Assembly: GCA_036785375.1 (NCBI GenBank)
Contig: JAWMAR010000401.1
Span: 1-64,000 of the forward strand
From: Leucoraja ocellata
Lineage: Eukaryota
Direction of reading: 5' to 3'
Length of the DNA: 64,000 nucleotides
The notes beneath the pieces are model-generated. The model saw only the letters and a list, made by a program, of their open reading frames with translations, made no database searches and was not told where the DNA came from. Positions 8,106-50,699 of the stretch are shown here, in pieces. The number at the start of each line of letters is the position of its first letter. Positions within the stretch are counted from its first letter, which is position 1. The position numbers were made by a program, and so were the translations under genes.

Positions 8106-8774
8106 CACGGATCAATATTTTTGGGGATAATGCAAATATTATTATTCGAAAGTACATTTACCAGCCTTAGAAAATAGTTCCATGGATTATATCTTTATTC
8201 AGAAGCTAAAATCACTGCAATTATTGAAATAGTTTCAAATGAATGGATGACTAAAGAAAATCCAAATAAATGAGAATTCAGTGGTGGTCGGGTTTAACAC
8301 AAGCAGACAAGCCTAACATTTTAATAGTGCATGACAGAGAAATAGAGATTCTCATTTTCACGTGGGAAATGGTAATCATAAGATCAATATCTACTCATCC
8401 TAAAGCTAAATACAATGATTTAAAACGATAATGAATGAATCTTGATCAAATGGGCATTTATTCTAACACTAGTGCCATTTTTTATATATGCTAGATAACA
8501 TTTTCTTTATCTGACCTGTGCAGCTTTCACTTCTCATATTTTTTAGTTTCGAAGGCTTAATATTGATTGTTTGATGAAAATATTTGAAAATCAATGTACC
8601 AACTTTCTTAGATCTGTTGAGAGGTTTAATATTGCACCTTTTCAATTCATTTGTAATCACATCACTTTTTTTAATTCACACCTAGCTATTTCACATTCAT
8701 TTGTTCTATCACCAGTGCATGGTGGCTACAGGATGTGCTATCTACTCTGACATTGTCCAAACTCACAACCTTTA

Positions 8775-11127: not shown

Positions 11128-12234
11128 GAAATCTTGCACGTTCAACTGAGAGATAAAGACCATTTCTATGTAATACTAACTCTCTGAATGAATGAAATGT
11201 GAAACCCAATCTAATGATTTTGCTGAAAAAACAGCCAGCTCTGCATGCTGATAACCAGTAAATATGTTTAAACTGCTGACTCGATTAACCAGGAAATCTA
11301 AAAGTGCATTCAAGTGGATTTAATGTTACCGGTCAGAATTGCATCTGTCTTCCAGGGGTTTGCAAACAATATAATATATTTTACAATCCCTGTATTCTAA
11401 ACTTGAACCATGTGCATGGACTAATTGGATTTGTAGTCTGTTTTCAGCAGGCTTGAGTCTTGCCTTAGCATATGGTTAAAGGTAAATATGATTCATAGAA
11501 CAGCATTGCTTTAGGAGAAAGATTTTGGAAGAAAATGAATCCACAGGACTAAATATAATAAAACATTGGGAATATATGAGAAATCCTTTGGTTAAATAAT
11601 AAAGGTTAATGTGTCTTCAAAGGTAAGCAGAGGCTAACATTTAAACACTTAATCTTACCTGCATGAGTGTGCACATCAATGTCAAATAGAAAGTTCCTTT
11701 GGAGAGTTTGTTATGCTCATTTTTTAATCTCTGTGGTGATACTGCTTGTCTAAAACTCCATTTGATGTGCCCATTGATTCTGGCTGATTAGCATGTGTCC
11801 ACATGTTTTTTAAAGCTGCTGGTCCATCAAACCATCCCGATTTCCCTCTCCTCCACCCCCACCCCCCAATTTTTTTATTTTCTCTCCAAGGTCCTACCCC
11901 CCACCCACCTGCTACTTTTAGTCTGAAGAAGGGTCCCAACCTGAAAGCCACCCATTCCTTTTCAACAGAGATGCTGCCTGATCCACTGAGTTACTCCAGC
12001 ACTGTGCTTATCCTTGAATGTCCTGACACATTTCAAATTCATGCCCATCTTTTCAAGAACTCCGAACATAAATGACCAATCTTTTGGCCATGCCACAGAA
12101 TTGAAACAATCCTTGCCAAATTAAAAAATGTTACCCAATGGGACCATGTATAATAAACTATCCATTTTGGTCCAACGTCATCTTTCTTCAAACTATAGCA
12201 TGGTTGAACAGACTGGACCCATCAAATGATGTCT

Positions 12235-12510
12235 TCGTGTGTAGGAAGGAACTGCAGATGCTGTTTAAACCAAAGATAGACACAAAATGCTGGAGCAACT
12301 CAGCGGGACAGACAGCATCTCTGGAGAGAAGGAATGGGTGACGTTTTGTGTCTAGACCCTTCTTCAGACTTTGAAGAAGAATCTCGACCCGAAACGTCAG
12401 CCATTACGTTCTGTCTGAAGAAGGGACTCGACCCGAAACGTCAGCTATTACTTCTCTCCAGGGATGCTGCCTATCCCGCTGAGTTACTCCAGCATTTTGT
12501 GTCTAGCTTC
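12235..12510. mobile_element. Palindromic Penelope-pLTR-derived unit with three hammerhead-like motifs
   Basis: Inverted arms (gacacaaaatgctggag...gcatc / gatgctgc...ctccagcattttgtgtc) around CTGAAGA...GAAACGTC motifs. Confidence 0.7.
12415..12442 (+). ncRNA. Minimal type I hammerhead ribozyme motif
   Basis: CTGAAGA-a-GGGactcgaCCC-GAAAC-GTC. Confidence 0.55.
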
Positions 12511-17422: not shown

Positions 17423-17729
17423 GAGCCAGCAACGACATTCAATATGATCATGGCTGATCATCCACAATCAGTACCCCGTTCCTGCCTTCTCGCCATATCC
17501 CCTGACTCCACTATCTTCAAGAGCTCTATCTAACTCTCTCTTGGAAGCATCCAGATAATTGGCCTCCACTGCCAGAATTCCACAGATTCACAACACTCTG
17601 TGTGAAAAAGTTTTTCCTCATCTCCGTTCTAAACGACCTACCCCTAATTCTTAAACTGTGGCCCCTAGTTCTTGATTTCCTCAACATCGGGAACATTCCT
17701 GCCTCCCAATGTGTCCAATCCCTTAATAA

Positions 17730-17865
17730 CTTATAGTCTGAAGAAGGGTTTCAGCCCGAAACGTTGCCTATTTCCTTCGCTCCATAGATGCTGCTGCACC
17801 CGCAGAGTTTCTCCAGCTTTTTTGTGTAACCTTCGATTCTCCAGCATCTGCAGTTTCTTCTTAAA
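17730..17865 (+). mobile_element. 136 bp hammerhead-containing Penelope-derived insertion
   Basis: 10 bp TSD cccttaataa (17720-17729 / 17866-17875); core CTGAAGA-GGGTttcaGCCC-GAAAC-GTT at 17738-17765. Confidence 0.75.
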
Positions 17866-18192
17866 CCCTTAATAATCATATCTGTTTCAATAAGATCCGC
17901 TCATCCTTCTAAATTCTAGAGTATAGAAGCCCGGGAATTAATGTTGTGAACCTACCCTGCACTCCCTCAATAGCAAGAATGTCCTTCCTTAAATTTGGAG
18001 ACCAAAACTGCACACAATACTCCAGGTGTGGTCTCATGAGGGCCCTGTACAACTGCAGAAGGACGTCTTTGCTCCTATACTCAACTCCTCTTGCTATGAA
18101 GGCCAACATGCCATTAGCTTTCTTCACTGCCTGCTGTACCTGCATGCTTACTTTAGGTGAATTTATAATGGGAAAGAAGGATATGGCAGAAC

Positions 18193-18449
18193 AGGCAGAG
18201 GTTCACGTGCACCTCCTCCAACCTCATCTACTATATTCGCCGTTCCAGGTGTCAACTTCTCAACGTCGGCGAGACCAGGTGCAGACTCGGCGATCGTTTC
18301 GCTGAACACTTCCGCACAGTCCGTCGTAACCTACTTGATCTCTCGCCCAGCACTTCAACTCCTCATCCCATTCCCAATCTGACCTTTCTGTCCTGGGCCT
18401 CCTCCATTGTCAGAGTGAGGCCCAGCGTAAGTTGGAGGAACAGCACCTA
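18193..18449 (+). mobile_element. Penelope-like element GIY-YIG endonuclease remnant
   Basis: FTCTSSNLIYYIRRSRCQLLNVGETRCRLGDRFAEH...QHFNSSSHS...RKLEEQHL. Confidence 0.8.
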
Positions 18450-18469
18450 TTGCTTTTCCATTGACTAAA

Positions 18470-39390: not shown

Positions 39391-39463
39391 ATGGTCGATG
39401 CTTTCGTTGGAACCTGGAAGCTCATTGAAAGCGAGAATTTCGATGCATATATGAAAGCTTTGG
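39391..39463 (+). CDS. FABP7: Fatty acid-binding protein 7 (brain), exon 1
   Basis: [24 protein letters not shown] + G|GTAAG; 73 nt, canonical FABP exon 1. Confidence 0.96.
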
Positions 39464-39739
39464 GTAAGCAGCGCACTGCATGTCGGCAATCTTGCGAATA
39501 ATTAAACCTTAAATCTGGTAGTCCAGACAGAAATATATACTTGAAATAAACATTTTATATTAAACAACGACAGATATCAATATTTCACGAGGAAGCTAAG
39601 CTATAGGCATGTTTGATGTTCTTCAGTGTAAATAATTCCTGCCGTGTTCATTCAAGGCAAAGCAGCATATAGCTAGTGTGTTTCATTCACTCACTTTGAA
39701 TGGAGAATGGAAATTGGTGCAATATGTGTATTTTGGCAG

Positions 39740-39912
39740 GTGTGAGTTTCGCTACTAGACAAGTCGGGAATGTGACCAAACCGACTATTGTCATCAGCAA
39801 AGAGGACGATACTGTGGCGTTGAAGACGCTGAGCACCTTTAAAAACACCGAAATCACCTTCAAACTAGGAGAAGAGTTCGACGAAACTACAGCGGATGAC
39901 CGGGTCTGCAAA
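39740..39912 (+). CDS. FABP7: FABP7 exon 2
   Basis: ttttggcag|[58 protein letters not shown]|gtaagt; 173 nt. Confidence 0.96.
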
Positions 39913-39977
39913 GTAAGTGCAGTGATTGTCATTGCGCATTGTTTGTCCGTGCGCGCTTCAGTAATAGATTCAGACAA

Positions 39978-40096
39978 GGTTACACAAAAAAGCTGCAGAA
40001 ACTCAGCGGGTGCAGCAGCATCTATGGAGCGAAGGAAATAGGCAACGTTTCGGGCCGAAACCCTTCTTCAGACGGGTTCTGAACTAGATTCTGAAC
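39978..40096 (-). mobile_element. 119 bp hammerhead-containing insertion in FABP7 intron 2
   Basis: 13 bp TSD tagattcagacaa (39965-39977 / 40097-40109). Confidence 0.78.
40044..40071 (-). ncRNA. Minimal type I hammerhead ribozyme motif
   Basis: Minus strand CTGAAGA-a-GGGT[TTCG]GCCC-GAAAC-GTT; stem II capped by UUCG. Confidence 0.6.
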
Positions 40097-40360
40097 TAGA
40101 TTCAGACAATGTGGATAATTGAGCTGACGAATAAGATTTATTTTCTGTTCTGCCTCCCGGTTTGGAGTAGCGGCGGGAGCAGACAAAGATTTGTTTCAAA
40201 CATTGCTTTTCGAAAGTAGTACATTATCGTTACTAGCTAACCTCGATTTAAATATTTATAGTTATTTTGCCAAACGCAATTGTTGACAAATGCTGCCCAG
40301 TTTCTTGTTTATTGCGATTAACGTTTGCTGATCGACAATTCGTATTCTACTTGTCAACAG

Positions 40361-40462
40361 ACAACGATAACTTTGGAAGGTGATAAACTTGTTCACGTCC
40401 AGAAATGGGATGGAAAGGAAACTAGTTTTACCAGGGAACTCAAGGATGGCAAAATGGTCATG
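40361..40462 (+). CDS. FABP7: FABP7 exon 3
   Basis: tcaacag|[34 protein letters not shown]|gtacgt; 102 nt. Confidence 0.96.
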
Positions 40463-40546
40463 GTACGTTAACCTGTAATTGTATTTCTATTGCATTATTC
40501 TTTTGGTGTGAATGGCTTAAGTTAAATTGTACTTGTGTTTCAACAG

Positions 40547-50230: not shown

Positions 50231-50699
50231 GATAGCTTTGGATAGTTTTTTTAAAAACACTCAATGTAGTTTTTCTGTGATTATCTTGACCTGTTAGATT
50301 TGAGCGAAAGTTATTTCAGCTCCTTTCACTCAAGCAGGATAAATAGCTGGGTCTTGTATGGAAACAAAGAACTGCAGATGCTGGTTAATATGCAAAAGGG
50401 AGCAGTGCTGGAGTAACTCAGCAGGCCAGACAGCATCTCTGGAGAATGTGACATTTTGGGTCGAGACCCTTCTTCAGACCCTAAACGTCACCTATCCATG
50501 TTCACCAGAGATGCTGCCTGACCTGCTGAGTTACTCCAGCAGTTTGTGCCCTTTTGGGTCCTATTTGGTGTACCTTGCATGACATTTTGAAATTTGCACT
50601 TTTACTTTTGTTAATTTCTGTGATGACTTGTGCAAATGAATAAACCCTGAATCTCATTGTGTAGCATTCATTTAGCTTGGGTATTTAGAAGTTATCATT

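Follow-up and report, generated by a model that had tools for sequence, protein, structure and literature searches.

The window, by which we mean the whole stretch of 64,000 nucleotides analysed here (Leucoraja ocellata, contig JAWMAR010000401.1, positions 1 to 64,000), holds a short insertion that carries a hammerhead motif and interrupts a fragment of a host LINE (Table 1). The insertion measures 130 bp, or 131 bp counting one base common to the target. Positions within the element are numbered from the C of CTGAAGA, which is 0 and corresponds to window position 17738, with negative numbers upstream; so numbered, the insertion starts at −2, that is, 2–3 nt before the hammerhead core.

Table 1. 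Features at the insertion, the related copy in the window and the short arrays elsewhere in the genome (window coordinates unless a contig is given)
Feature	Position	Strand	Remarks
Host LINE fragment hit by the insertion	17526..17940 (bounds approximate)	−	3′ part of ORF2; frame 17526–17750; empty sites
Left target-site duplication	17720..17735	+	Host LINE, 16 of ~17 bases, one lost; from the majority among 22 empty sites
Insertion: end piece of 130 bp (tail and end of the pseudo-LTR), Penelope-like element of probable Neptune type	17736..17865	+	127/131 match to element end
Minimal type I hammerhead motif	17736..17767	+	Core from 17738; helix II 17746–17757; predicted cleavage at 17765/17766
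Inner 3′ end, site B	17824..17831	+	End of tail-less copies and inverted arms; likely second reverse-transcription start
Penelope tail, 34–35 of 37 nt	17832..17865	+	Ends at outer 3′ end (site A)
Right target-site duplication	17866..17882	+	17 bases, two changes versus LINE majority
Sister copy in intron of FABP-like gene	39978..40073	−	Same subfamily, 5′ start −2, tail-less, ~95 bp
Array locus L371	G000:C466:676300–678000		
Array locus L372	C188:3671000–3672500		
Array locus L373	C1:13750800–13752600		
Array locus L374	C71:788600–790200		

An earlier note on this DNA had described a 136-bp unit between 10-bp target duplications. The repeat CCCTTAATAA is present at 17720–17729 and again at 17866–17875, with the spacing of 136 bp as described, but the true duplication is longer and the insert shorter. 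This follows from 22 LINE sites scored as empty among the fetched loci and the window (18 others were filled or otherwise interrupted), the majority of which continue with the six bases at 17730–17735. These bases are therefore LINE and not element sequence, the duplication is a decayed one of about 17 bp, and the start that had been placed 8 nt before the core moves accordingly. Neighbouring LINE frames match the Pfam domain RVT_1, and the host LINE is probably of the CR1 type. Over its length the insert is identical at 127 of 131 bases to the pseudo-LTR and tail that end a reverse transcriptase (RT) and GIY-YIG element in the same genome, in agreement with the Penelope relationship proposed earlier, and both the target duplication and the end defined by this parent support a retrotransposed insertion. 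Its four differences from the reference end and its decayed duplication suggest that the window copy is probably old.

The same host-LINE site was hit independently many times (loci L002, L005, L006, L009, L012, L014, L019 and L027, and window 17720), with differing 5′ junctions and duplication lengths, and the target has a few bases in common with the 3′ end of the element. Such loci were favoured by our first DNA query, which included LINE flank and was not used for the counts of 5′ ends.

The sister copy belongs to the same subfamily, as the earlier note had said, and sits antisense (40073–39978) between exons of a FABP-like gene that lie at 39415–40500 on the plus strand. It lacks the 37-nt tail and has its own 13-bp duplication and 23 extra bases at its 5′ junction, so that the two copies do not represent a single defined unit. 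The extra bases look like snap-back synthesis. Older subfamilies of the same Penelope end occur in the window at 11915, 12242–12502, 14148, 24249, 25155, 32579, 36326, 38372, 45126, 50407–50540 and 62179; several of these also start at the core, two are inverted pairs, and helix II has U-G versus U-A among them. Additionally, an older Penelope copy has left a decayed piece of its GIY-YIG-coding region at 18190–18450, 300 bp downstream of the insert.

The hammerhead-like core had been recognized correctly from 17738 onwards, but an unpaired A had been left out; the real order is CTGAAGA-A-helix II-GAAAC-GTT. In the window the motif has a helix I of 2 bp (17736–17737 with 17766–17767), the unpaired A and a loopless helix III with a palindrome; its triplet is GUU, and one loop base is changed (+15 G>A). 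Among 294 cores, chosen on the core pattern, the extra unpaired A after position 9 is present in 287, the first helix II pair is G-C in 257 and C-G is found at helix III in 252. Helix II consists of 4 bp, three G-C pairs plus U-G or U-A, and helix I of 2 bp with an unpaired third position (−1/+28 is U-G in 203 or U-A in 62, −2/+29 is G-C in 225); 187 of the cores have the triplet GUU and 106 have GUC. Thus the core, the unpaired base after 9, G10.1-C11.1 and the palindromic 15.2–16.2 are all those of minimal hammerheads of Penelope-like elements (PLEs), whereas the helices fall short of the 4–5 bp (I) and 7–8 bp (II) of that class. At gathering scores Rfam gave no matches in the window, and monomer folding of four stretches compared with shuffles gave no signal (z −0.23 to +0.57). 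By its sequence the motif, though shorter in its helices, fits those minimal PLE hammerheads which depend on dimer formation or on protein.

A 30-base word from the 3′ part of the insert matches the 3.44-Gb genome exactly at 8,120 places, and an inner 32-base word does so at 81,824. From the first 100 listed matches of the 30-base word, 90 loci were fetched and 89 analysed; 20 of these continue into a pyrimidine-rich region. One locus (L113) is a 3.57-kb insertion that has the same end as the window insert, a 15-bp duplication, and RT and GIY-YIG frames. A search with its 5′ part led to full-length copies, which are partial tandems: the upstream copy of the same end reads on, tail included, into the ORF. 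At 13 of 20 fetched loci this gave a 3.9-kb unit, with upstream and downstream pseudo-LTR copies about 3.9 kb apart and a majority frame of 1,228 codons. Two partial-tandem copies, L153 and L151, retain natural open frames of 1,241 and 1,202 codons, on which basis the parent family may have been active recently. Judged by its match to this end, the insert represents the last 130 bp of a 3.9-kb Penelope-like element that is autonomous and encodes both RT and GIY-YIG.

The motifs DKG and YIDD are visible in the parent frame, and the Pfam scores for RVT_1 on the L153 frame (E 8e-5) and for GIY-YIG on L113 (E 5e-4) both lie under the curated cut-offs. Ahead of GIY-YIG the parent frames have a C-X4-C-X2-C linker that fits the CX2-5CxxC definition and points to a Neptune or Nematis type, an assignment made from this motif. 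The parent has the features of EN+ Penelope-like elements: a single ORF with RT and C-terminal GIY-YIG (at the scores just given), partial-tandem pseudo-LTRs, an inverted 5′-truncated copy, a 30–40-bp tail and a target-site duplication. Its end pieces have two 3′ ends, at about +93 and +130, which are 37 nt apart with the Penelope tail between them; at the tail-anchored loci inverted arms end almost always at ~+93 and direct arms at ~+130. Site B was placed where tail-less copies and inverted arms end, and two start sites bounding the tail have been described for the Anolis element (PMC11167929).

The start at the hammerhead edge is shared by copies across the genome. From the first 100 of the listed matches of the inner word we recovered 97 arms and kept 85 after collapsing duplicates, namely 31 long, 18 short inverted and 36 simple short. 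The claim that other copies begin just upstream of CTGAAGA is true genome-wide: 27 of the 36 simple short copies start at −6 to +3 and 33 at −6 to +9, the other three being at +28, +36 and +46. A second, tail-anchored sample comprised 27 simple insertions curated by eye, with inverted copies, segmental duplicates and two rearranged tandems left out; 14 of these start at −4 to −1, nine at −100 to −3440 and four at +6 to +57. The modal 5′ end is −2. Short inverted arms stop most often at +10 (18/82), inside the helix II palindrome.

Exact counts across the genome fall as the core is extended upstream from −1, from 33,416 to 30,775, 24,939, 21,383, 16,891 (at −6) and 13,919 (at −9, counted with a degenerate pattern), and the loss per base is greatest between −2 and −3, at 19%. 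As these figures also take in duplicated loci, both arms of inverted copies, mutated sites and differences between subfamilies, they bound the short class rather than measure it, and within those bounds suggest well over ten thousand copies. About 42–55% of intact cores continue past the boundary. The 5′ ends therefore form a spike on top of a continuous tail and are not random, which differs from the purely continuous spread that the earlier note had named as the mark of random truncation. The survey of boundaries and duplication lengths that it proposed, carried out here on samples, gave this sharp 5′ edge together with two 3′ ends, not those of one unit, and duplications of 8–20 bp in 25 of the 36 simple short copies.

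These distributions bear directly on whether the insert could be a product of self-cleavage, a circular (retrozyme) monomer or the result of random 5′ truncation, a set of readings to which we give very little credence. Random truncation predicts, from its rate on either side, that 2–3% of arms reaching +9 stop within 16 nt, but 33 of 64 do so. Retrozymes derive from pLTRs (bioRxiv 10.64898/2026.07.22.740005), and a few copies do begin at the cut site. A cleavage product would start at +28; however, only one of the 36 simple short copies starts there, the 27 in the spike start 25–34 nt upstream, and the 3′ end is not at the cut site. For the window copy itself, a cleavage product or retrozyme monomer is contradicted by its 5′ end at −2.

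Another reading would make the boundary a 3′ splice site, with the short copies derived from spliced RNA. A pyrimidine tract followed by CAG precedes the core, with AG at −3/−2, and an intron of the Drosophila virilis Penelope ends at helix I (PMC4209133). We nevertheless regard splicing as highly improbable. No common upstream exon was found in 30 copies starting at −1 or in 30 starting at −2, target duplications abut the insert within 0–9 nt, and the one candidate spliced junction has no match in the genome. Among the read joints shown for RNA runs from two other organisms there was no such skip. For the one donor tested, the splice-acceptor model is largely refuted.

A rare class of rearranged copies gives a second view of the templates. 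The tail-to-ORF junction has 152 exact matches in the genome; we inspected the first 30 and, further down the list, another 40, passing over nine listed matches that had been obtained before (some of them full-length). This gave 63 distinct loci, of which 48 are mini-tandems. In these a segment runs from +93 or +130 back to a variable point and is preceded by a segment that starts within the ORF at +186 to +302 (in one case +507). The variable point lies at −5 to +7 in 13 mini-tandems, at +28/29 in four, elsewhere downstream in five, and is spread over −17 to −283 in the remaining 26, so that not all templates start at the ribozyme. The templates of mini-tandems thus included the ORF start along with tail and ribozyme, a combination that no solo copy can supply. 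They represent only about 0.2% of copies (152 versus 81,824 matches), and it is thus by inference that their templates are extended to the solo copies.

The first base after the predicted hammerhead cut is +28. The downstream mini-tandem junctions at +28 to +31 make up four of nine (p 5e-4), with different ORF donors, and in the 40 loci fetched after this pattern had been noticed they make up three of seven (p 0.003), although these numbers are small and microhomology at +29 to +31 could explain two or three of the junctions. Across all short arms the excess at +28/29 is at most slight (9 of the 69 arms ending at +12 to +48). We take the cut-site junctions as a hint, read from genomic sequence, of hammerhead cleavage in vivo. 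At L372 all four segments start at +28, and L240 has a similar junction.

An identical junction is often seen several times in a single insertion, or in each of two inverted arms (L264, L266, L271, L282, L284, L391 and L392, and also the hand-picked L371–L374), as expected if a single short RNA served for several rounds of copying, either as a circle or with jumps from one end to the other. L371–L374 and L391 are retrozyme-like short arrays with units of 145–317 bp, each made of the pseudo-LTR end and the ORF start with the same junction repeated. Identical junctions are also seen at unlinked loci, +250 to −50 in L289, L373 and L401 and +266 to −51 in L374 and L391; these would reflect either repeated template switching or non-autonomous source elements of about 300 bp. 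We tentatively propose, as a possibility that we hold at rather less than even chances, that Penelope copies short pseudo-LTR/ORF RNAs round repeatedly, through jumps or circles, and sometimes RNA cut by its own hammerhead, with the genome as the fossil record of this process. If true, this would amount to in vivo evidence of ribozyme cleavage and to a mechanism for partial tandems. It would also provide a direct route from a Penelope element to retrozyme-like arrays of 145–317 bp, some already self-moving.

For the solo copies we consider it somewhat probable that the terminal 130 bp was written when RT started inside the element's own RNA and ran off the RNA 5′ end. This reading is supported by the identity with the parent's end, the two fixed 3′ ends, the target duplications and the pile-up of 5′ ends at the hammerhead edge, and templates that carry the ORF start are supported by the 48 mini-tandems and by the 13 among them that jump from −5 to +7 into the ORF. 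The GIY-YIG domain would nick both target strands about 10–18 bp apart, and RT would prime at site A or B (+130 or +93), some 95–130 nt from the RNA 5′ end. The template transcript would begin at an Inr-like sequence just before the ribozyme, in the upstream pseudo-LTR, at about −3/−2. On reaching the RNA end, the cDNA could be joined to the target to give a solo copy like that in the window, could pair with another cDNA that had been primed from the opposite strand, to give an inverted pair, or could jump to an RNA 3′ end within the ORF start to give a mini-tandem; longer copies would come from RNAs that start further upstream. The ribozyme would be mostly uncut in the copied RNA, with a small minority of templates likely beginning at the cut site. 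Internal priming at two sites, with uncut RNA as the main substrate, has been described (PMC11167929), as has an internal promoter in the pseudo-LTR of Drosophila Penelope (PMC2377424).

Among the top rows of raw reads from 3′-biased libraries (three RNA runs, two other organisms) we saw no RNA 5′ end at −2/−3 and no position at which molecules begin or end in large numbers; the bias of these reads towards one strand probably comes from oligo-dT priming on A runs. A G precedes 40 of the 100 listed −2 ends (p 0.012), a confounded figure that counts as weak for a cap-derived G, and before −3 ends G is not enriched (about a quarter of 100 listed, by eye). At L297:1248 and 1276, loose antisense read ends in runs X23 and X24 lie near the element's two 3′ ends (agreement 0.43–0.46). 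Their loose ends resemble what is presumably a template-switch oligo, and they are possibly antisense RNA starts or a library artefact.

The position of the boundary also admits a reading with the same parent and the same internal priming in which the edge is set by RNA trimming, or by RT stalling, at a protein-bound ribozyme fold. It is the chief alternative to our reading, since helix I begins at −2 too and the modal end coincides exactly with the 5′ strand of that 2-bp helix. The mini-tandem templates look like short fragments ending at +186 to +302, as from a protected footprint, and the Anolis ribozyme is described as folding only with protein (PMC11167929). An RT moving 3′ to 5′ would, however, already have passed and unwound the 3′ strand of helix I by the time it reached −2, and roughly half of the intact cores (the range given above) read through the boundary. 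Furthermore, there is an Inr-like motif at the boundary, where the Drosophila element has an internal promoter (PMC2377424). We regard trimming or stalling as rather unlikely, and retain run-off at an RNA 5′ end as our working explanation of the edge.

The earlier note had proposed a tiny separate unit mobilised in trans by Penelope proteins. Its sharpest form would be a SINE-like non-autonomous family in which solo 95/131-bp copies, each with an internal promoter of its own, give transcripts that include flank and are copied again in trans. The fixed ends and the frequent 8–20-bp duplications are what such a family would have, an internal promoter with internal priming makes the route possible in principle, and in Adineta the trans mobilisation of other DNA by pLTR sequences has been described. 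Both 3′ ends occur among short copies, however, giving two lengths of ~95 and ~131 bp that match the parent's two ends, and the tail is present in 11/36 short and 12/31 long arms (scripted scoring, in which a few tails were missed). Every subfamily tallied among long copies is found also among short ones, and none of 12 variants (non-CpG, seen at least three times) was private to short copies when 103 short and 88 long arms were pooled from all loci. Divergence is alike (0.83 short versus 0.69 long per 80 nt), in a comparison region of 80 nt that has little power to expose small secondary sources. One variant, +91 A>C, does differ in frequency (short 50/96 versus long 22/86, p 0.0003), in a long set that was enriched for the young subfamily by the young-subfamily query.

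The two mini-tandem junctions that recur at unlinked loci may be 300-bp secondary sources, but they belong to 300-bp tandems and not to the 130-bp unit, and one has ~9 nt of microhomology. The Anolis protein depends on RNA that lies past the start sites (PMC11167929), and a solo copy has none. With neither diagnostic variants of their own nor one defined length, and with shared 3′ ends and subfamilies, the short copies do not support a separate trans-mobilised unit, and we consider a SINE-like family improbable, though a minority of copies may have arisen in trans from non-coding source loci. The window insert is instead the terminus of an autonomous element, and the two lengths of short copies are set by the two 3′ ends of that parent.

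The element itself is unremarkable, a Penelope end piece among tens of thousands, and its value is mechanistic. The common start of thousands of end pieces is likely to be the start of the RNA from which they were copied, and the fixed 5′ boundary predicts where template RNA begins, while the mini-tandems give exact, testable RNA-end coordinates (−2, +28 and +186 to +302). These data bear on how Penelope regenerates its partial tandems and on whether the hammerhead cuts in vivo, questions raised in PMC2377424, PMC11167929 and PMC4209133.

Much of what is seen here has been published. Dispersed single hammerheads from truncated PLEs, solo pLTRs, the tail, inverted copies and internal priming are described, as are short non-autonomous Penelope elements and retrozymes as pLTR derivatives (PMC11167929, PMC4209133, PMC3846280, PMC8557442, PMC2377424, PMC7229834, PMC6765202, PMC6685494, bioRxiv 10.64898/2026.07.22.740005). 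In searches of the openly accessible literature, neither a fixed 5′ boundary at the ribozyme nor genomic junctions at the cut site turned up as the subject of a paper, although Repbase or Dfam may contain a consensus or non-autonomous entry for this family. Thus the undescribed system that had been suspected at this locus gives way to a known kind of retroelement, of which the window insert is the shortest common product.

Among known systems, the parent most resembles EN+ Penelope-like elements of the Neptune type (PMC8557442, PMC3846280). It shares with them a single RT and C-terminal GIY-YIG ORF with a Zn-finger-like linker, partial tandems with an inverted 5′ copy and a 30–40-bp tail, and heavy 5′ truncation with 8–20-bp duplications and solo pLTRs. 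Their 5′ truncation is described as variable, whereas here there is a fixed boundary at the ribozyme edge and more than ten thousand solo 95/131-bp insertions. In Poseidon PAc of Anolis (PMC11167929) the tail likewise lies between two internal start sites for RT, with a hammerhead about 100–150 nt upstream of them, both strands are cut and extended, and uncut RNA is the main template. Its ORF starts inside the hammerhead and here after the tail; that study reports no RNA reads ending at the cut site, and here a few genomic junctions start there.

The minimal hammerheads of metazoan PLE pLTRs (PMC4209133), in an account consulted that does not deal with sharks or rays, share with ours the unpaired base between 9 and 10.1, G10.1-C11.1 and a palindromic, loopless helix III. 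They too are mostly single dispersed motifs, 'probably related to truncated PLEs', with close pairs on opposite strands. Those of Schistosoma have a helix II of 7–8 bp and a helix I of 4–5 bp, against 4 and 2 bp here, and the D. virilis hammerhead also has a 2-bp helix I (PMC4209133).

Non-LTR retrozymes, as described in PMC7229834 and bioRxiv 10.64898/2026.07.22.740005, are likewise short, ORF-less, hammerhead-bearing and derived from PLE pLTRs. Their units stand in tandem, each with its own, usually canonical, hammerhead, and are expressed as circles. The window copy, in contrast, is solo rather than built of at least two hammerhead units, and its ends are set by the parent and not by self-cleavage. 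It is the rare mini-tandems of 145–317 bp, which alone have the tandem build, that resemble retrozymes here.
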